Source: Escherichia phage 64795_ec1. From it: a stretch of DNA of 39,235 nucleotides. Shown piece by piece: positions 1-39,235 of the stretch. The DNA is taken from sequence record NC_031114.1. One strand, given 5' to 3'. The notes beneath the pieces were generated by a model, which saw only the letters and a program-made list of their open reading frames with translations, was not told the DNA's origin and ran no database searches. Numbering within the stretch: the stretch's first letter is position 1; each line of letters starts with the position of its first letter. The position numbers and the translations under genes were made by a program.

Positions 1-66
1 ACAAAAGCCTATTCCTAAAGACGCCTTGTTGTCACCTATAAAGAGATAATCTTCATCCATCGTCTT

Positions 67-89
67 TAATACAACTCACTATAGGGAGA
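67..89 (+). promoter_or_regulatory. T7-RNAP promoter phiOL (TAATACAACTCACTATAGGGAGA)
   Basis: 23-bp match to T7 class promoter consensus, +1 G at 84. Confidence 0.8.
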
Positions 90-140
90 CTACTTAAAGA
101 TGCCTTAAAAGATTAATTTAAAGATTTATTAAAAAGAGTA

Positions 141-5655: not shown

Positions 5656-5928
5656 ATGGGACGTCTGTATAGTGGCAATCTGGCGGCATACAAAGATGCT
5701 ATCGAGCGCCTCAGAGAAGACCATGCTGTAGATGTGGTCACTGAGACTTATCGACGTGAAGACTACGCACAGCGCCGATGGGTAGCTGGTGAGACTCTTC
5801 GAGTGGTCTTGCGGAATGGCGTAGAGTTGACATCCAAGAGGTTCGAACAGGGTGATGAGGATGTACGCTGCAACGCACAGACCGAGTGGTTACGCAAGGT
5901 GCATAGTGATTTGAAGCACTGGAAGTAA
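5656..5928 (+). CDS. 1.2: gene 1.2 protein (host dGTPase inhibitor family), divergent allele
   Basis: 90 aa starting MGRLYSGNLAA and ending …DLKHWK; stop TAA is the first triplet of phi1.3. Confidence 0.75.
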   Translation: MGRLYSGNLAAYKDAIERLREDHAVDVVTETYRREDYAQRRWVAGETLRVVLRNGVELTSKRFEQGDEDVRCNAQTEWLRKVHSDLKHWK

Positions 5929-5952: not shown

Positions 5953-6369
5953 ATGAACGACATAGAACGATTCAACGCAAAGACTGAACCATGCGGAGAA
6001 TGTATTCGTTGGACTGGTCGAATCCAGCCTAACGGGTACGGTCAGTTACGATTAAACGGTAAAACACAGTATGCACACAGAGCAGCTTACACACTGTTCA
6101 ATGGAGAAATACCAGAAGGATACGTGGTTATGCACTCCTGCGATAACAGATGGTGTGTAAACCCAAGGCACCTAACTTTAGGAACACAATCTGATAACCT
6201 CATTGACATGACCAGAAAAGGTAGGCACAGTAAGACCGTAATACCAAACGATCACATAGAGGGAATCAGGAATGATACCCGATCTTCCTACGTAATAGCT
6301 AGGGAGTGGGGAGTGAATCCATCAACTATCCAAAAGATTAAATCTGGAAAGAATAGGAGATTTGTATGA
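5953..6369 (+). CDS. free-standing HNH homing-type endonuclease
   Basis: 138 aa; motif HSCDNRWCVNPRHLTLGTQSDNLIDM (H-x-C-D-N-x-x-C-x-N-P-x-H-L…N) and a helix-turn-helix-like C-terminus (VIAREWGVNPSTIQKIKSGK). Confidence 0.85.
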   Translation: MNDIERFNAKTEPCGECIRWTGRIQPNGYGQLRLNGKTQYAHRAAYTLFNGEIPEGYVVMHSCDNRWCVNPRHLTLGTQSDNLIDMTRKGRHSKTVIPNDHIEGIRNDTRSSYVIAREWGVNPSTIQKIKSGKNRRFV

Positions 6370-8048: not shown

Positions 8049-8576
8049 TGGGATGCATAGCGTGCTTAGAGAAAGACGACCGTTACCCGCACACCTGTAA
8101 TAAAGGAGTTAACAATATGACCGAACGTGAACAAGAGATTATCATTAAGTTGATAGACAATAACGAAGGTCGTAGCGGAGACACATCTGGCTGTGGCCTG
8201 TTCTGCGCTGGAGTACCTTGTGGCGAGTGTCCTGTAACAAACGATGAGCACATTACCTTAGGTGAAATCCGAGCGATGGACCCACGTAAACCTCATCTGA
8301 ATAAACTTGAGGTAACTCCTACGGATGACCAGCCTTCCTCTGAATCAATCGAAGGTGTCACTAAGCCTTCACATTACATGCTGTTTGACGACATTGAGGC
8401 TATCGAGGTGATTGCCCGTTCAATGACTCGTGAGCAGTTCAAAGGGTATTGCTTAGGGAACATCCTTAAGTACCGCCTACGTGCTGGTAAGAAGTCCGAA
8501 CTGGCTTACTTAGAGAAGGACATGGCGAAAGCTGGCTTCTATGGTGAACTGTACGAGAAACATAAGGATAAGTGCT

Positions 8577-19437: not shown

Positions 19438-21048
19438 ATGGCTGAGAAGCGTAAAGGTCTAGCCGAGGAAGGAGCAAAGTCGGTTTATGACCGATTGAAG
19501 AACGACCGCGCTCCTTATGAGACTCGTGCTCAAAACTGCGCTCAGTACACCATTCCGTCCCTCTTCCCTAAGGATTCCGATAACTCATCCACAGACTACA
19601 CGACTCCGTGGCAAGCTGTGGGTGCTCGCGGTCTCAATAACTTGGCCTCTAAGCTCATGCTGGCGCTCTTCCCGATGCAAACGTGGATGAAGCTGACCAT
19701 CTCTGAGTACGAGGCAAAACAGTTACTGAATGACCCCGATGGACTCGCTAAGGTCGATGAGGGTCTCTCAATGGTAGAGCGTATCATTATGAACTACATT
19801 GAGTCTAACAGTTACCGAGTGACTCTCTTTGAGGCCCTCAAGCAGTTAGTCGTAGCTGGCAACGTTATGCTATACCTACCGGAACCAGAAGGGTCAAACT
19901 ACAATCCAATGAAGCTGTACAGATTGTCTTCTTATGTGGTCCAACGAGACGCATTCGGCAACGTTCTGCAAATGGTGACGCGTGATCAGATAGCTTTCGG
20001 TGCACTCCCTGAGGACATCCGTAAGTCTGTAGAAGGTCAAGGTGGTGAGAAGAAAGCCGATGAGACCATCGACGTGTACACTCACATCTATCTGGATGAG
20101 GACTCAGTTGAATACCTCAGATACGAAGAGGTAGAGGGTATGGAAGTCCAAGGCTCCGCTGGGACTTACCCTAAAGAGGCTTGCCCATATATCCCGATTC
20201 GAATGGTTCGACTGGATGGTGAATCCTACGGTCGTTCGTACATTGAGGAATACTTGGGCGACTTACGGTCCCTTGAGAATCTCCAAGAGGCCATCGTTAA
20301 GATGTCAATGATTAGCTCTAAGGTTATCGGCTTAGTGAATCCTGCTGGTATCACCCAGCCACGCCGACTGACCAAAGCTCAGACTGGTGACTTCGTTACT
20401 GGTCGTCCAGAAGACATCTCGTTCCTCCAACTGGAGAAGCAAGCAGACTTTACTGTAGCCAAGGCTGTCAGTGACGCTATTGAGGCTCGCCTTTCGTTTG
20501 CCTTTATGTTGAACTCTGCGGTTCAACGTACAGGGGAACGTGTGACCGCCGAAGAGATTCGGTATGTGGCCTCCGAACTTGAAGATACTTTAGGTGGTGT
20601 CTACTCTATCCTTTCTCAAGAATTACAATTGCCTCTGGTACGAGTGCTCTTGAAGCAACTACAAGCCACGCAACAGATTCCTGAGTTACCTAAGGAAGCA
20701 GTAGAGCCAACCATTAGTACAGGCTTGGAAGCAATTGGTCGAGGACAAGACCTTGATAAGCTGGAGCGTTGCGTAACTGCGTGGGCTGCTCTGGCTCCTA
20801 TGCGCGATGACCCTGACATCAACCTTGCGATGATTAAGCTGCGCATTGCGAACGCTATCGGTATTGACACTTCTGGCATTCTTCTTACCGAAGAACAGAA
20901 GCAACAGAAGATGGCTCAACAGGCTATGCAAATGGGTATGGATAATGGTGCTGCTGCGCTTGGTCAAGGTATGGCTGCACAGGCTACAGCTTCACCTGAG
21001 GCTATGGCTGCTGCCGCTGATTCCGTAGGTTTACAGCCGGGCATTTAA
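19438..21048 (+). CDS. 8: portal (head-tail connector) protein (gene 8)
   Basis: 536 aa MAEKRKGLAEEGAKSVYDRLKNDRAPYETRAQNCAQYTIPSLFPKDSD…. Confidence 0.98.
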   Translation: MAEKRKGLAEEGAKSVYDRLKNDRAPYETRAQNCAQYTIPSLFPKDSDNSSTDYTTPWQAVGARGLNNLASKLMLALFPMQTWMKLTISEYEAKQLLNDPDGLAKVDEGLSMVERIIMNYIESNSYRVTLFEALKQLVVAGNVMLYLPEPEGSNYNPMKLYRLSSYVVQRDAFGNVLQMVTRDQIAFGALPEDIRKSVEGQGGEKKADETIDVYTHIYLDEDSVEYLRYEEVEGMEVQGSAGTYPKEACPYIPIRMVRLDGESYGRSYIEEYLGDLRSLENLQEAIVKMSMISSKVIGLVNPAGITQPRRLTKAQTGDFVTGRPEDISFLQLEKQADFTVAKAVSDAIEARLSFAFMLNSAVQRTGERVTAEEIRYVASELEDTLGGVYSILSQELQLPLVRVLLKQLQATQQIPELPKEAVEPTISTGLEAIGRGQDLDKLERCVTAWAALAPMRDDPDINLAMIKLRIANAIGIDTSGILLTEEQKQQKMAQQAMQMGMDNGAAALGQGMAAQATASPEAMAAAADSVGLQPGI

Positions 21049-21069
21049 TACGACTTCACTATAGGGAGA
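21046..21069 (+). promoter_or_regulatory. T7-RNAP promoter phi9, variant with one extra T (TAATACGACTTCACTATAGGGAGA)
   Basis: 24-nt match to the 23-nt consensus with an inserted T at 21055/21056; gene 8 stop TAA is its first triplet. Confidence 0.6.
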
Positions 21070-22170: not shown

Positions 22171-23205
22171 ATGGCTAACATGACTGGTGGACAGCAACTG
22201 GGTACTAACCAAGGTAAAGGCGTAAGCGGTGGTGCCGATAAACTGGCGTTGTTCTTGAAGGTATTTGGTGGTGAAGTTCTGACTGCATTCGCTCGTACCT
22301 CCGTGACCACTTCTCGCCACATGGTCCGTTCCATCTCCAGCGGTAAATCTGCTCAGTTCCCTGTTCTGGGTCGCACTCAGGCAGCGTATCTGGCTCCGGG
22401 TGAGAACCTCGACGATAAACGTAAAGACATCAAACACACCGAGAAGGTAATCACCATTGATGGTCTCCTGACGGCTGACGTTCTGATTTACGATATTGAG
22501 GACGCGATGAACCACTATGACGTTCGCTCTGAGTACACCTCTCAGTTGGGTGAATCTCTGGCGATGGCTGCTGATGGTGCGGTTCTGGCTGAGATTGCCG
22601 GTCTGTGTAACTTGGTAGGGACCTCTAACGAGAACATTGAGGGCCTAGGTGCTGCTACCGTAATTGAGACCACTCAGGCCAAGACTGCACTTACCGACCA
22701 AGTTGCTCTGGGTAAAGAGATTATTGCGGCTCTGACTAAAGCTCGTGCGGCTCTGACCAAGAACTATGTTCCGGCTGCTGACCGAGTGTTCTACTGCGAC
22801 CCTGACAGCTACTCTGCGATTCTGGCAGCACTGATGCCGAACGCTGCAAACTACGCTGCTCTGATTGACCCTGAGAAGGGTTCTATCCGCAACGTTATGG
22901 GCTTTGAGGTTGTAGAAGTTCCGCACCTCACCGCTGGTGGCGCTGGTACTGCCCGTGATGGCGTAACTGGTCAGAAGCACACCTTCCCTGCCACTAAGAG
23001 TGGTAATGACAAGGTAGCTAAGGACAACGTTATCGGCCTGTTCATGCACCGCTCTGCGGTAGGTACCGTTAAGCTGCGCGACTTGGCTCTGGAGCGCGCT
23101 CGCCGTGCTAACTTCCAAGCTGACCAGATTATCGCTAAGTACGCAATGGGTCACGGTGGTCTGCGCCCAGAAGCTGCTGGTGCAGTGGTTTTCAAGGGGG
23201 AGTAA
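22171..23205 (+). CDS. 10A: major capsid protein 10A
   Basis: 344 aa MANMTGGQQLGTNQGKGVSGGADKLALFLKVFGGEVLTAFARTSVTTSRH…. Confidence 0.98.
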   Translation: MANMTGGQQLGTNQGKGVSGGADKLALFLKVFGGEVLTAFARTSVTTSRHMVRSISSGKSAQFPVLGRTQAAYLAPGENLDDKRKDIKHTEKVITIDGLLTADVLIYDIEDAMNHYDVRSEYTSQLGESLAMAADGAVLAEIAGLCNLVGTSNENIEGLGAATVIETTQAKTALTDQVALGKEIIAALTKARAALTKNYVPAADRVFYCDPDSYSAILAALMPNAANYAALIDPEKGSIRNVMGFEVVEVPHLTAGGAGTARDGVTGQKHTFPATKSGNDKVAKDNVIGLFMHRSAVGTVKLRDLALERARRANFQADQIIAKYAMGHGGLRPEAAGAVVFKGE

Positions 23206-23342
23206 TGCTAAGGGTGGCCTCAACGGTCGCTGCTAGTCCCGAAGAGGCGAGTGTTACTTCAACAGAAGAAACCTTAACGCCAGCACAGAAGGCCGCACGC
23301 ACCCGCGCTGCTAACAAACCAGCTGCTGCCGCTGAGCAATAA
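22171..23342 (+). CDS. 10B: minor capsid protein 10B by -1 ribosomal frameshift near 23188-23194
   Basis: slippery G GTT TTC; -1 frame then reads QGGVMLRVASTVAASPEEASVTSTEETLTPAQKAARTRAANKPAAAAEQ to TAA 23340-23342. Confidence 0.7.
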
Positions 23343-29774: not shown

Positions 29775-32700
29775 ATGGATAAGTACGATAAGAACGTACC
29801 AAGTGATTATGATGGTCTGTTCCAAAAGGCGGCTGATGCCAACGGGGTCTCGTATGACCTTTTACGTAAAGTCGCTTGGACGGAATCACGCTTTGTACCT
29901 ACAGCAAAATCTAAGACTGGACCATTAGGCATGATGCAGTTCACCAAGGCAACCGCTAAGGCACTTGGTCTGCGAGTTACCGATGGTCCAGATGATGACC
30001 GACTAAACCCTGAGTTGGCTATCAATGCTGCCGCCAAGCACCTTGCAGGTCTGGTAGGGAAGTTTGATGGCGATGAACTCAAAGCTGCCCTTGCATACAA
30101 CCAAGGCGAGGGACGCTTGGGTAATCCTCAACTTGAGGCGTACTCTAAGGGAGACTTCGCGTCCATCTCTGAGGAAGGACGGAACTACATGCGTAACCTT
30201 CTGGATGTTGCTAAGTCACCTATGGCTGGACAGTTAGAAACTTTTGGAGGTATCACCCCAAAGGGTAAAGGCATTCCGGCTGACGTTGGACTAGCTGGAA
30301 TAGACCATAGTCAGAAAGTAACACAGGAACTTCCTGAGTCCACAAGTTTTGACGTTAAAGGTATCGAACAGGAGGCTCCGGCGAAACCATTCGCCAAGGA
30401 CTTTTGGGAGACCCACGGAGAAACACTTGATGAGTACAACAGTCGTTCAACCTTCTTCGGATTCAAAAATGCTGCCGAAGCTGAACTCTCCAACTCAGTC
30501 GCTGGGATGGCTTTCCGTGCTGGTCGCCTCGATAATGGTTTTGATGTGTTTAAAGACACCATTACGCCGACTCGCTGGAACTCTCACATCTGGACTCCAG
30601 AAGAGTTAGAGAAGATTCGAACTGAGGTTAAGAACCCTGCGTATATCAACGTGGTAACTGGTGGTTCTCCTGAGAATCTTGACGACCTCATTAAGCTGGC
30701 TAACGAGAACTTTGAGAATGACTCACTCGCTGCCGAAGCTGGCCTCGGTGCTAAACTGAGTGCTGGCATTATTGGCGCTGGTGTGGACCCTCTTAGTTAT
30801 GTTCCCATGGTTGGTGTAACTGGTAAGGGCTTTAAGTTAATCAATAAGGCTCTTGTGGTTGGTGCAGAAAGTGCTGCGCTGAACGTTGCATCCGAAGGTC
30901 TCCGCACATCCGTAGCTGGTGGCGATGCAGATTATGCTGGTGCTGCCTTAGGTGGCTTTGTGTTTGGCGCTGGTATGTCTGCAATCAGTGATGCTGTAGC
31001 TGCTGGTCTGAAACGTAGTAAACCAGAAGCTGAGTTCGACAATGAGTTCATTGGTCCCATGATGCGGATGGAAGCCCGTGAGACAGCGCGTAACGCCAAC
31101 TCTGCGGACCTCTCTCGGATGAACACTGAGAACATGAAGTTTGAAGGTGAATACAAAGGCGTTCCATATGAGGAACTTCCGACCGAAAAGGGTGCTGTGG
31201 TTCTCCATGACGGCTCCATACTTAGTGCGAGCAACCCAATCAACCCCAAGACTCTCAAAGAGTTCTCCGAGGTTGACCCTGAGAAAGCGGCACGAGGAAT
31301 CAAACTAGCAGGGTTCACTGAGATAGGGTTAAAGACCTTAGGCTCAGACGACGCTGATATTCGACGGGTAGCTATTGACCTAGTGCGGTCTCCTACCGGA
31401 ATGCAATCAGGTTCCTCAGGGAAGTATGGTTCAACAGCTTCGGACATTTTCGAGAAACTTCGTGGCACTGACCAGCGTACTTACAACGACTTGTATAAGG
31501 CGATGTCTGACGCGATGAAAGACCCTGAGTTCTCCACTGGCGGCGCTAAGATGTCTCGCGAAGAAGCTCGTTACACTATCGAGCGTCGAGTGTCCTTGGC
31601 TATTGAGAACCCTGAGCTACAGAAGGCTTTAACTCCTAACGAGCGAATCGTAATGGACATCGTTAAGCGACATTATGACACCAAGCGTGAACTTATGGAG
31701 AACCCTGCGGTCTTTGGTAACACGAAGGCTGTGAGTATCTTTCCGGAGAGTAGACACAAGGGAACATATGTTCCACATGTGTACGACAAGTACGCTAAGG
31801 CACTCAAAATTCAACAATATGGTGCTGAGGGCTTACAGGAAGGTATCGCTCGGTCATGGATGTGTAGCTACGATTTGAGGCCTGCGGTAAAGGCCCGTAT
31901 TGACGAAGCACTTAAAGAGATGCACGGTGTAGAGGAAGTCACACATGATATGGTGTATAAGTACGCTATGGATAAAGCATACGGTATCTCTCACTCAGAC
32001 AGGTTCACTAATAGCTCCATCATTGAGGAGAACATTGAGGGTCTTGTTGGTATTGAGAATAACTCATTCCTTGAAGCACGAAACCTCTTTGACTCCGACT
32101 TAGCAATCACCATGCCAGATGGTCAGCAATTCTCTGTGAACGATTTGAGGGACTTTAGTATGTTCCGTATCATGCCAGCGTATGACCGCCGTATCAACGG
32201 TGACATAGCCATCATGGGGTCTACCGGTAAAACCACTAAGGAACTTAAGGATGAGATTTTGGCTCTCAAAGCGAAAGCTGAGGGTGACGGTAAGAAGACT
32301 GGCGAGGTTCATGCTCTAATGGATACCGTTAAGATTCTTACTGGTCGTGCTCGACGCAATCAGGACACTGTGTGGGAAACCTCACTGCGTGCCATTAATG
32401 ACCTAGGGTTCTTCGCCAAGAACGCCTATATGGGTGCTCAGAACCTTACGGAGATTGCTGGGATGATTGCCACGGGTAACGTGCGTGCTCTTGGTCACGG
32501 TATCCCAATTCTACGTGATACACTCTACAAGTCTAAACCAGTTTCCGCTAAGGAACTTAAGGAACTCCATGCGTCTCTGTTCGGGAAGGAGGTGGACCAG
32601 TTGATTAGACCTCAACGTGCTGACATAGTGCAGCGTCTAAGGGAAGCAACTGACACAGGGCCTGTTGTGGCGAACATCGTAGGAACCTTAAAGTATTCCA

Positions 32701-33581
32701 CACAGGAACTAGCTGCTCGCTCTCCATGGACTAAGCTGCTTAATGGAACCACTAACTACCTTCTTGATGCTGCGCGTCAAGGTATGCTTGGGGACGTTAT
32801 TAGTTCTACCCTAACAGGTAAGACTACCCGCTGGGAGAAAGAAGGATTCCTTCGTGGTGCCTCCGTAACTCCTGAGCAGATGGCTGGAATCAAGGCTCTC
32901 ATCAAGGAACATATGGTACGTGGTGAGGACGGGAAGTTTACCGTTAAGGATAAGCACGCGTTCTCTATGGACCCTCGTGCTATGGACTTATGGAGACTGG
33001 CTGACAAGGTAGCTGATGAGGCGATGCTGCGTCCACACAAGGTGTCCTTACAGGATTCCCATGCGTTCGGAGCATTAGGTAAGATGGTCATGCAGTTTAA
33101 GTCTTTCACTATCAAGTCCCTTAACTCTAAGTTCCTGCGAACCTTCTACGATGGGTACAAGAACAACCGAGCGATTGACGCTGCGCTGACTGGTATCATA
33201 TCTATGGGTCTCGCTGGTGGCTACTACGCTATGGCTGCACACGTCAAAGCATATGGAATGCCTAAGGAGAAACGTAAAGAGTACTTGGAGCGAGCACTGG
33301 ACCCAACCATGATTGCCCACGCTTCGTTGTCTCGTAGTTCTCAATTGGGTGCTACTTTGGCTATGGCTGACCTAGTTGGTGGCCTGTTCGGGGTTGAGTC
33401 CTCAAAGATGGCCCGCTCTACGATTCTGCCTAAAGACACCATGAGGGAGCGTGACCCTAATAAGCCTTATACCTCGTGGGAGGTAATGGGTAATATGGGT
33501 TCCAACATTCTTGAACAGATGCCATCGGCTGGATTTGTGGCTAACGTTGGGGCTTCCCTACTTAATCTGCTGGCGTGGTGA
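29775..33581 (+). CDS. 16: internal virion protein D with N-terminal lytic transglycosylase domain (gene 16); reading frame ends early at TGA 33579-33581
   Basis: 1268 aa; …GVSYDLLRKVAWTESRFVPTAKSKTGPLGMMQFTKATAKALGL… (transglycosylase motif). Confidence 0.9.
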   Translation: MDKYDKNVPSDYDGLFQKAADANGVSYDLLRKVAWTESRFVPTAKSKTGPLGMMQFTKATAKALGLRVTDGPDDDRLNPELAINAAAKHLAGLVGKFDGDELKAALAYNQGEGRLGNPQLEAYSKGDFASISEEGRNYMRNLLDVAKSPMAGQLETFGGITPKGKGIPADVGLAGIDHSQKVTQELPESTSFDVKGIEQEAPAKPFAKDFWETHGETLDEYNSRSTFFGFKNAAEAELSNSVAGMAFRAGRLDNGFDVFKDTITPTRWNSHIWTPEELEKIRTEVKNPAYINVVTGGSPENLDDLIKLANENFENDSLAAEAGLGAKLSAGIIGAGVDPLSYVPMVGVTGKGFKLINKALVVGAESAALNVASEGLRTSVAGGDADYAGAALGGFVFGAGMSAISDAVAAGLKRSKPEAEFDNEFIGPMMRMEARETARNANSADLSRMNTENMKFEGEYKGVPYEELPTEKGAVVLHDGSILSASNPINPKTLKEFSEVDPEKAARGIKLAGFTEIGLKTLGSDDADIRRVAIDLVRSPTGMQSGSSGKYGSTASDIFEKLRGTDQRTYNDLYKAMSDAMKDPEFSTGGAKMSREEARYTIERRVSLAIENPELQKALTPNERIVMDIVKRHYDTKRELMENPAVFGNTKAVSIFPESRHKGTYVPHVYDKYAKALKIQQYGAEGLQEGIARSWMCSYDLRPAVKARIDEALKEMHGVEEVTHDMVYKYAMDKAYGISHSDRFTNSSIIEENIEGLVGIENNSFLEARNLFDSDLAITMPDGQQFSVNDLRDFSMFRIMPAYDRRINGDIAIMGSTGKTTKELKDEILALKAKAEGDGKKTGEVHALMDTVKILTGRARRNQDTVWETSLRAINDLGFFAKNAYMGAQNLTEIAGMIATGNVRALGHGIPILRDTLYKSKPVSAKELKELHASLFGKEVDQLIRPQRADIVQRLREATDTGPVVANIVGTLKYSTQELAARSPWTKLLNGTTNYLLDAARQGMLGDVISSTLTGKTTRWEKEGFLRGASVTPEQMAGIKALIKEHMVRGEDGKFTVKDKHAFSMDPRAMDLWRLADKVADEAMLRPHKVSLQDSHAFGALGKMVMQFKSFTIKSLNSKFLRTFYDGYKNNRAIDAALTGIISMGLAGGYYAMAAHVKAYGMPKEKRKEYLERALDPTMIAHASLSRSSQLGATLAMADLVGGLFGVESSKMARSTILPKDTMRERDPNKPYTSWEVMGNMGSNILEQMPSAGFVANVGASLLNLLAW

Positions 33582-33730
33582 ATGCTCCCAACAAAGCCAC
33601 TGAGCAGGACTTCATGACTGGCTTGATGAACTCTACCAAGGAGTTAGTACCTAACGACCCTCTTACTCAACAGCTTGTGTTGAAGATTTATGAGGCGAAT
33701 GGTGTTAACTTGAGGGAACGTCGGAAATAA
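33578..33730 (+). other. 16: displaced 3' segment of gene 16 (last 50 codons in the other frame)
   Basis: VNAPNKATEQDFMTGLMNSTKELVPNDPLTQQLVLKIYEANGVNLRERRK, stop TAA 33728-33730 inside phi17; 1268+50 codons equals the T7 gp16 length as I recall it. Confidence 0.6.
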
Positions 33731-33750
33731 TACGACTCACTATAGGGAGA
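33728..33750 (+). promoter_or_regulatory. T7-RNAP promoter phi17
   Basis: TAATACGACTCACTATAGGGAGA, +1 at 33745. Confidence 0.88.
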
Positions 33751-33802: not shown

Positions 33803-34675
33803 ATGGCTAACGTAATTAAAACCGTTTTGACTTACCAGTTAGATGGCTCCACTCGTGATTTTAATATCCCGTTTGAGTATCTAGCCCGTAAGTTCGTAGT
33901 GGTAACTCTTATTGGTGTAGACCGCAAGGTCCTTACGATTAATACAGACTACCGTTTTGCTACTCGCACTACTATCTCACTAACCAAGGCTTGGGGTCCA
34001 GCGGATGGATATACTACAATAGAGCTACGTCGAGTAACCTCCACGACCGACCGCTTGGTTGACTTTACGGATGGCTCAATCCTCCGTGCGTATGACCTTA
34101 ACGTCGCTCAGATTCAAACGATGCACGTAGCGGAAGAGGCCCGTGACTTAACTGCGGATACTATCGGTGTCAATAATGATGGTAACTTGGATGCTCGTGG
34201 TCGTCGAATTGTGAACCTAGCGAACGCTGTAGATGACCGTGACGCTGTTCCGTTTGGTCAACTTAAGGCTATGAACCAGAACTCATGGCAGGCGCGTAAT
34301 GAGGCCTTACAGTTCCGTAATGAGGCTGAGACTTTCAGAAATCAAGCGGAGGGCTTTAAGACCGAGTCTGGCACTAACGCTGCTAATACGAAGCAGTGGC
34401 GTGATGAGACCAAAGGTTTCCGAGACGAAGCTGAGCAGTTTAAGAATACTGCTGGTCAATATTCTACATCCGCTGGGAACTCTGCGACCGCAGCACACCA
34501 ATCTGAGGTAAACGCTGAGAACTCCGCAACAGCCTCCGCTAACTCTGCCCAGTCAGCAGAACAGCAAGCAGACCGCGCTAAGGTGGAAGCAGACAAGTTG
34601 GGTAACTGGAATGCACTTGCAGGGGCAATTGATAGTGTTGACGGGAACAATGTCATGTTTAAAGGCGACATTTAG
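33803..34675 (+). CDS. 17: tail fibre protein (gene 17), proximal part: T7-type tail-anchor and coiled-coil shaft
   Basis: 290 aa MANVIKTVLTYQLDGSTRDFNIPFEYLARKFVVVTLIGVDRKVLTINTDYRF…; stops at TAG 34673-34675. Confidence 0.9.
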   Translation: MANVIKTVLTYQLDGSTRDFNIPFEYLARKFVVVTLIGVDRKVLTINTDYRFATRTTISLTKAWGPADGYTTIELRRVTSTTDRLVDFTDGSILRAYDLNVAQIQTMHVAEEARDLTADTIGVNNDGNLDARGRRIVNLANAVDDRDAVPFGQLKAMNQNSWQARNEALQFRNEAETFRNQAEGFKTESGTNAANTKQWRDETKGFRDEAEQFKNTAGQYSTSAGNSATAAHQSEVNAENSATASANSAQSAEQQADRAKVEADKLGNWNALAGAIDSVDGNNVMFKGDI

Positions 34676-35675
34676 AACACCTGCAAATATCGTAGGTGGT
34701 GGCTTAATCTCCAACGGTTCTGGTCATTTTGAGAAAGGCGTGGCTGTTAAGGGTGAATTAGATGTTGTAGGGGATGTTTCGGCGCATAAGGATGTGTGGG
34801 TAGATGGTGTAGTTGTAGCCAATGGTGGGATACAGCAACATTCAAATCCTAATACCCTTAATGAGGTGTGGAGGGTGTTTATTAAGGGGGTCCCACTCCA
34901 TATTGGAAACCGACAAGGTCTTCATCTTGGTTGGAACGAGACCAGTAATGGCGAGTCGTGTTTTGTTACTAACAAAGGTGCAGGTGGTGGTGGTTTTGTT
35001 TTCCGCACGGTAAACTTTGAGAACACTGCTGAGATTGGTCGCGTTACATTCACTGGTAACGGTGGAGTACGCGCCTTCGATTTACAAGCAATTAATGGTG
35101 CTCGTATTGAGGCTGGGAATAATATAGTTGGTGCGAGCATTTTCTCAGGAATGGGCGCCTGCCAGTTCAATACCGAAGGTAACTTGCTGGGAGGTCTATG
35201 GAACAGAGTTGGAGGTGACCTATACAACTACCTGTGGAACAAGAGTCACTTTGCTAAGCCACCTGCTGGGGTTCAATTGTTTACAGGCCGTGGTGGGGAC
35301 TACCTTGAGGGCCTTGTTGATACTACAGCTGTTGGGTTCCGCTGGTTCAATTCTGACAGAAGGCTTAAAGAAAACATAAAGGTTGTACGTTCCGCTGATG
35401 ATATGCTTAAGATTATCCGCTCATACATCCCGGTTTCCTATAAGTATAAGGACTCTGAGTATGTTGATAAGCGTGGCAGAACGGTAAGCGTTACCGGTAA
35501 GAACTCTCGTGCTGGTTTCATTACTCAGGATTTGATTCGAATCTGGCCAGAGGCGGTGGACGTGCTATCCGATGGTATGCAATCCCCAGACCCTAACCAA
35601 ATCATCGGTGGACTCATGCTTCTTGTCAAGAATCTTGATGAACGCGTACAGGAGTTGGAGAAAAATAACGTTTAA
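34674..35675 (+). CDS. 17: tail fibre (gene 17), distal receptor-binding part with C-terminal S74-like intramolecular chaperone, in the other frame
   Basis: RTPANIVGGGLISNGSGHFEKGVAVKGELDVVGD… then …NSDRRLKENIKVVRSADDMLKIIRSYIPVSYKYKD…IIGGLMLLVKNLDERVQELEKNNV; no independent SD, so a continuation of the proximal ORF is assumed. Confidence 0.75.
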   Translation, partial: RTPANIVGGGLISNGSGHFEKGVAVKGELDVVGDVSAHKDVWVDGVVVANGGIQQHSNPNTLNEVWRVFIKGVPLHIGNRQGLHLGWNETSNGESCFVTNKGAGGGGFVFRTVNFENTAEIGRVTFTGNGGVRAFDLQAINGARIEAGNNIVGASIFSGMGACQFNTEGNLLGGLWNRVGGDLYNYLWNKSHFAKPPAGVQLFTGRGGDYLEGLVDTTAVGFRWFNSDRRLKENIKVVRSADDMLKIIRSYIPVSYKYKDSEYVDKRGRTVSVTGKNSRAGFITQDLIRIWPEAVDVLSDGMQSPDPNQIIGGLMLLVKNLDERVQELEKNNV

Positions 35676-38989: not shown

Positions 38990-39156
38990 AGAGTCAAGTC
39001 CTAAAGTATATCCATAAAGAGCCTCTAATGGTCTATCCTAAGGTCTATACCTAAAGATAGGCCATCCTATCAGTGTCACCTAAAGAGAGTCCTAGAGAGG
39101 GCCTAGGGAGTTCCTAGAGGGTCCTTTAAAATATACCATAAAAATCTGAGTGACTA
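38990..39156 (+). repeat. right-end short-repeat region (CCTAAAG-like heptamers) preceding the terminal repeat; concatemer-processing/packaging signals by position
   Basis: recurring CCTAAAG / CCATAAAG / CCTAGAG units spaced along the segment. Confidence 0.45.
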
Positions 39157-39235
39157 TCTCACAGTGTACGGACCCAAAGTTCCCCCCATACGGGGTACCT
39201 AAAGCCCACCTAAAGTCAACCGAAGGTCCTTAGGG
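39157..39235 (+). repeat. beginning of the direct terminal repeat (partial, truncated by the window edge)
   Basis: TCTCACAGTGTACGGACCCAAAGTTCCCCCCATACGGGGTACCTAAAGCCCACCTAAAGTCAACC closely matches the T7 genome-end sequence as recalled. Confidence 0.7.

Follow-up and report, generated by a model that had tools for sequence, protein, structure and literature searches.

Genes 16 and 17 of phage T7 are essential virion genes, the former coding for the internal virion and ejection protein gp16, and T7-type particles devoid of tail fibres are essentially non-infective. A divergent architecture, in which an adaptor with a PF03906 domain is combined with separate tailspikes, is known from SP6-like phages. 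In the literature on T7-like phages, a search for gene 17 frameshifts retrieved only discussions of gene 10 frameshifting. The fibre of phage MeretOppenheim (Bas102) has been described as a homotrimer encoded by a single gene and provided with a C-terminal IMC domain, and the host range of this phage depends on the O16 O-antigen (PMC11990801). The window analysed here is the entire 39,235-nt sequence of Escherichia phage 64795_ec1 (NC_031114.1) and represents a Teseptimavirus genome that is complete or nearly so; it is collinear with and about 92% identical to that of T7. A scan with 53 T7 proteins (tblastn) identified genes 16 and 17 as the only disrupted genes of the window, gene 16 being the single multi-frame match.

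In the recorded sequence the T7-like frame of gene 17 (33803–34675) ends with ...VDGNNVMFKGDI at the TAG codon 34673–34675 and the distal half of the fibre is continued in the +1 frame, which extends without interruption from 34512 up to the stop codon at 35673–35675; the coordinates given for this break in the initial annotation are thereby confirmed. The features of the locus and of the two further defects described below are compiled in Table 1.

Table 1. Features of the tail fibre locus and of the additional one-base defects; positions refer to the window.
Feature	Position	Strand	Remarks
phi9-equivalent promoter with extra T	21046..21064	+	TT at 21055-56 in conserved core; reads TAATACGACTTCACTATAG
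Gene 16 as recorded	29775..33581	+	1268 aa; early end after 1-base deletion at 33566/33567
Displaced gene 16 C-terminus	33568..33730	+	53-54 codons; -1 frame relative to gene body
T7-type promoter, phi17 equivalent	33728..33745	+	exact match to TAATACGACTCACTATAG; 5' of gene 17
Gene 17 proximal part	33803..34675	+	290 aa; tail-binding N-terminal domain and coiled-coil shaft; TAG 34673-75
TTT run with one extra base	34671..34673	+	TT in relatives (alignments)
Gene 17 distal part, +1 frame	34674..35675	+	333 codons and stop; receptor-binding region and C-terminal chaperone
Peptidase_S74 intramolecular chaperone domain	35352..35558	+	PF13884; motif SDRRLK from 35352

The context of the gene corresponds to that of a T7-type gp17, as it follows gene 16, has its own promoter at the T7 phi17 position and is preceded by a strong Shine-Dalgarno (SD) sequence (−12.7 kcal/mol). 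The proximal part shares 92% amino acid identity with residues 1–290 of T7 gp17 and contains the Phage_T7_tail domain (PF03906; E = 7e-74, residues 1–162), and the distal part carries the Peptidase_S74 domain (PF13884; E = 1.4e-12, above the gathering score, distal residues 227–295). When the distal half was compared by sequence with solved structures, no match with an E-value of 0.01 or better was obtained. As previously claimed, removal of one T from the run at 34671–34673 restores a continuous protein, which comprises 623 residues, reads ...KGDIRTPANIVGGG... and ...FKGDIRTPANIVGGG... and matches the closest relatives at the break site. A single polypeptide from the anchor to the tip is thus not encoded by the record as written and is obtained once this T is removed. 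In the repaired protein the Ser-Lys motif S-D-x-x-x-K is found as SDRRLK at residue 517; it is conserved across 89 homologues and constitutes the predicted cleavage site, as in fibres and spikes of the endosialidase/T5 pb1 type. Judged from the domain content and from the described Bas102 orthologue, gp17 would form a homotrimeric fibre, which is attached to the tail by its T7-type N-terminal domain and whose coiled-coil shaft leads into the distal receptor-binding part. The C-terminal S74 chaperone would fold and trimerise this distal part and subsequently cut itself off at the Ser-Lys site.

The two closest relatives, the full-length metagenomic phage genomes L008 and L009, encode fibres of 623 residues with 96% amino acid identity (P0001 and P0003). 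At the break site, the window reads GACATTTAGAACACC compared to GACATT-AGAACACC in both of them. An alignment over 7.7 kb to these genomes at ca. 93% identity contains in total two indels, one in gene 16 (33567) and one in gene 17 (34673), both of which break a reading frame. In the annotated phages ESh1, Bas102, NC-A, vB_Yep_9 and HZ2R8 the fibre is specified by one continuous gene of 611–625 codons' worth of residues (611–625 aa), and DNA alignments to these five phages place one additional base in the window exactly at the break of gene 17. All 89 full-length homologues of the repaired gp17 (601–673 aa) are single polypeptides with both PF03906 and PF13884; since relatives carry the two domains in one protein, the break does not reflect a chance pattern of open reading frames. 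In 85 of the 89 homologues the alignment shows neither a gap nor an insertion in the 20 residues spanning the junction, so that the break falls within a contiguous, conserved region rather than at the natural limit of a gene. The distal part is devoid of internal stops and shows dN/dS values of 0.18–0.27 compared to the closest relatives; taking genes 16 and 17 together, the frames 3′ of the breaks are free of extra stops and evolve under purifying selection (omega 0.04–0.27). Pattern scans for the gene 17 lesion gave no matches in viral contigs and in GTDB genomes and 21 matches in metagenomes, none of which lies in a fibre gene and all of which are due to chance. A decaying pseudogene was ruled out on the basis of the dN/dS values, the 333 open codons and the lack of further indels.

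A break of the same kind, which is absent from the initial annotation, is found in gene 16, 1.1 kb upstream of that in gene 17. Residues 1–1264 of T7 gp16 match frame 3 and residues 1265–1318 match frame 2, where the tail ORF extends over 33575–33730. T7, NC-A, ESh1, HZ2R8, L008, L009 and the further relative L039 share the sequence TTAAT[A/G]CTGCTGG, whereas the window has one base fewer and reads TTAATCTGCTGG (33560–33581). The protein sequence of the displaced tail is identical to that of the gp16 tail of L008 and its dN/dS amounts to 0.04–0.05. No recoding signal was found at the gene 16 break, and neither this lesion nor that of gene 17 is shared by any other public contig among those scanned. 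A foreign or chimeric origin of the 1.1 kb separating the two indels, such as contamination with T7, was discarded, as the sliding identity to four relatives revealed no block bounded by the indels. A third one-base change affects the phi9-equivalent promoter, the core of which is GACTTCAC in the window instead of GACTCAC. The extra T occurs neither in T7 nor in NC-A, the site is missing among the 15 promoter matches of the window, and the other late promoters are perfect. The variant was found in none of the viral contigs, as against eight with the consensus in an identical upstream context. If real, the insertion should inactivate the promoter.

A real break in gene 17 could be bypassed by ribosomes that change the frame or compensated by a separate translation of the distal half. 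A +1 shift anywhere within a rescue window of 164 nt (34512–34675) leads to the fusion protein, and at the break itself an AUU codon in the P-site is followed by the stop codon UAG in the A-site. As long as the release factor has not yet arrived at the amber codon, the peptidyl-tRNA-Ile might move onto UUU, which would yield some full-length fibre besides a larger amount of the 290-aa stub. The required direction, the stop codon in the A-site, the breadth of the rescue window and a weak SD-like AAGG 4 nt upstream of the AUU codon, loosely resembling the prfB site, are in line with such an event. However, the AUU to UUU shift implies a first-position mismatch for tRNA-Ile according to the anticodon rules, unlike the CUU to UUU shift in prfB, and the AAAGG stretch simply represents Lys-Gly codons conserved in all relatives. 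The frame is continuous in every relative, so neither the +1 break nor its signals are conserved; the rescue window contains no motif of the CTT_TGA or CCC_TGA type and no other known +1-prone motif; and the equivalent break in gene 16 would need a shift in the opposite direction, also without a signal. By contrast, the genuine −1 site GGTTTTC of gene 10A/10B (at 23187; region 23187–23342), which served as positive control, is conserved and in phase and produces a 49-aa extension, the sole differences from that of T7 being two deletions of 18 nt and 3 nt that preserve the frame. A true recoding site of this lineage is thus common to its relatives, unlike the break in gene 17. A bypass of the break by +1 frameshifting at AUU-UAG therefore appears highly improbable, as does a phage kept viable by a few +1-shifting ribosomes at a low and fixed ratio of full-length protein to stub, i.e. 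a newly arisen recoding site in an essential gene for receptor binding. The previous statement that a slippery heptamer is lacking has to be modified, because TTTAAAG, the only one, is present at 34658. Its essence persists, since this heptamer is not in phase with the frame upstream of the break and a shift there would go in the wrong direction (−1 instead of +1), and −1 frameshifting was ruled out for these reasons. Transcriptional slippage and phase variation were likewise ruled out, as the rescue window contains no homopolymer of five or more bases. A truly split gene 17 of the SP6/K1-5 type, consisting of the 290-aa adaptor and a separately translated distal receptor-binding protein, could be envisaged because the break coincides with the module boundary at which the homology to T7 ends and because PF03906 adaptors with partner tailspikes exist. 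Yet the distal part lacks a docking domain, the 89 homologues include no split gene and the junction is contiguous and conserved in the relatives. The distal frame also has no credible start. Instead of the sole ATG (34611) reported earlier, the overlap contains two, at 34611 and 34650, which would add 8–21 out-of-frame residues. As had been noted, a sensible SD is lacking: the candidate starts up to 65 nt from the break (34611–34740) exhibit anti-SD energies of −2.7 to −5.7 kcal/mol and are weaker than 98–100% of the SDs of real genes, the median of which is −9.3 kcal/mol, with about −12 kcal/mol for genes 16, 17 and 17.5. The only stronger candidate, GTG 34875 (−6.9 kcal/mol), is still weaker than 86% of those of real genes and would remove 67 distal residues. 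A separate start for a distal protein was consequently ruled out, and a functional split has to be rated as even slightly less probable than recoding, the two being unlikely also when taken together.

The choice between a sequencing error and a real lesion, to which the initial annotation had narrowed the problem, is supported by these data and can now be shifted clearly towards the error. In the less favoured case, which we regard as unlikely albeit clearly ahead of recoding or a split, the extra T represents a genuine frameshift mutation of very recent date, irrespective of whether the gene 16 deletion is real, and the record describes a defective genome with a 290-aa fibre stub. Possible sources include a mutant sweeping through a laboratory stock, co-infection with trans-complementation, or a minority haplotype captured by the assembler. 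The record as given does carry the extra T, and an intact and constrained downstream sequence fits a brand-new mutation as well as an error. The term homopolymer error, used in the initial annotation, is only loosely apt, as the run affected by the change from TT to TTT is very short and the deletion in gene 16 involves no homopolymer at all; neither is a classic homopolymer miscall, and the long homopolymers in which miscalls concentrate are not affected, which speaks for real mutations. On the other hand, two or three independent deleterious one-base changes would have to be present as consensus at the same time, striking two essential genes and a strong promoter, and no other public contig has either of the two gene lesions. 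As fibreless particles are essentially non-infective, selection against a real lesion in gene 17 would be immediate, and the low dN/dS of the distal part and of the gene 16 tail together with the 333 open codons indicate that the lesion is not old. We therefore consider a base-calling or assembly artefact to be the likely origin of the frame break in gene 17. One to three one-base errors, introduced by base calling, polishing or contig merging, would account for all defects. That the indels are errors rather than mutations is most likely in view of the gene 16 indel and the phi9 insertion, which are of the same one-base kind and both unique to the record. It is further favoured because the defects, besides being unique, are located in strictly conserved elements and have left no evolutionary trace, and because the lesions, if jointly real, would leave the phage without functional gp16 and tail fibres. 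The phage itself thus probably encodes a single gp17 of 623 residues.

The general quality of the record was also considered. The sequence starts (window positions 1–120) approximately at T7 coordinate 319, the left terminal repeat and adjoining sequence being missing, and at the right end (39100–39235) the terminal repeat is present only in part; the genome ends are thus unresolved and the absence of the left repeat implies that the record was not end-finished, in line with errors in the sequence. Roughly 50 other genes are clean and no ambiguous base is present, which argues against a grossly poor quality. No exact match was obtained for gp15, the truncated gp16, the stub of 290 aa or the distal ORF of 354 aa. 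Aside from the frame breaks, the comparison with T7 revealed an HNH-endonuclease-like ORF between genes 1.2 and 1.3 (5962–6366), which is 35–41% identical to T7 gp2.8 and gp7.7. As genes 2.8 and 7.7 have no match at their T7 positions, this ORF looks like a relocated homing endonuclease. The product of the adjacent gene 1.2 (5656–5925), a dGTPase inhibitor and, according to PMC11990801, the PifA/F-exclusion determinant, is just 41% identical to T7 gp1.2 and has thereby diverged much more strongly than the remaining genome. Gene 1.7 has 54 nt (18 codons) fewer near its 5′ end (8049–8054) than in T7, with the net change being in frame, and no match to gene 1.8 was found in the window.

The gene 17 split is most probably an artefact, and the annotation should present genes 16 and 17 as single genes with a suspected sequence error, coding for a protein of 1318 aa and a fibre of 623 aa, respectively, or flag both as disrupted. 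If this is not done, databases and host-range predictions will take up a truncated “tail fibre” and an orphan “S74 peptidase”. Were the lesions real, the genome would be that of a non-infective variant and of some interest for the persistence of defective phage genomes, still without implying a new mechanism.

A comparison with known systems puts the break into perspective. The −1 frameshift of T7 gene 10A/10B resembles it as a change of frame within a late structural gene, conserved in the same genome, but the break in gene 17 needs a +1 shift, lacks a slippery site in phase and occurs only in this record. The likeness to the E. coli prfB gene (RF2) is superficial and consists of a codon ending in U, a subsequent stop codon and an SD-like element a few nucleotides upstream; the P-site codon is CUU in prfB and AUU here, and the SD-like AAGG is weak and 4 nt away instead of 3. 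T7 gp17 (553 aa) corresponds to the fibre of the window in residues 1–290, i.e. in the tail-binding domain and the coiled-coil shaft, as well as in promoter and gene order. Its distal half is a different module with an own tip domain and without an S74 chaperone, the homology ending at about 34653. The closest counterparts among the described phages are the fibres of MeretOppenheim (Bas102), ESh1, NC-A and Yersinia phage vB_Yep_9, which agree with that of the window in gene position, in both Pfam domains and in the junction FKGDIRTP.N.VGGGLISNG. With 622–625 residues they also match the 623 residues of the repaired gene product at a DNA identity of 83–90%; their genes are continuous, whereas that of the window is split by one extra T.
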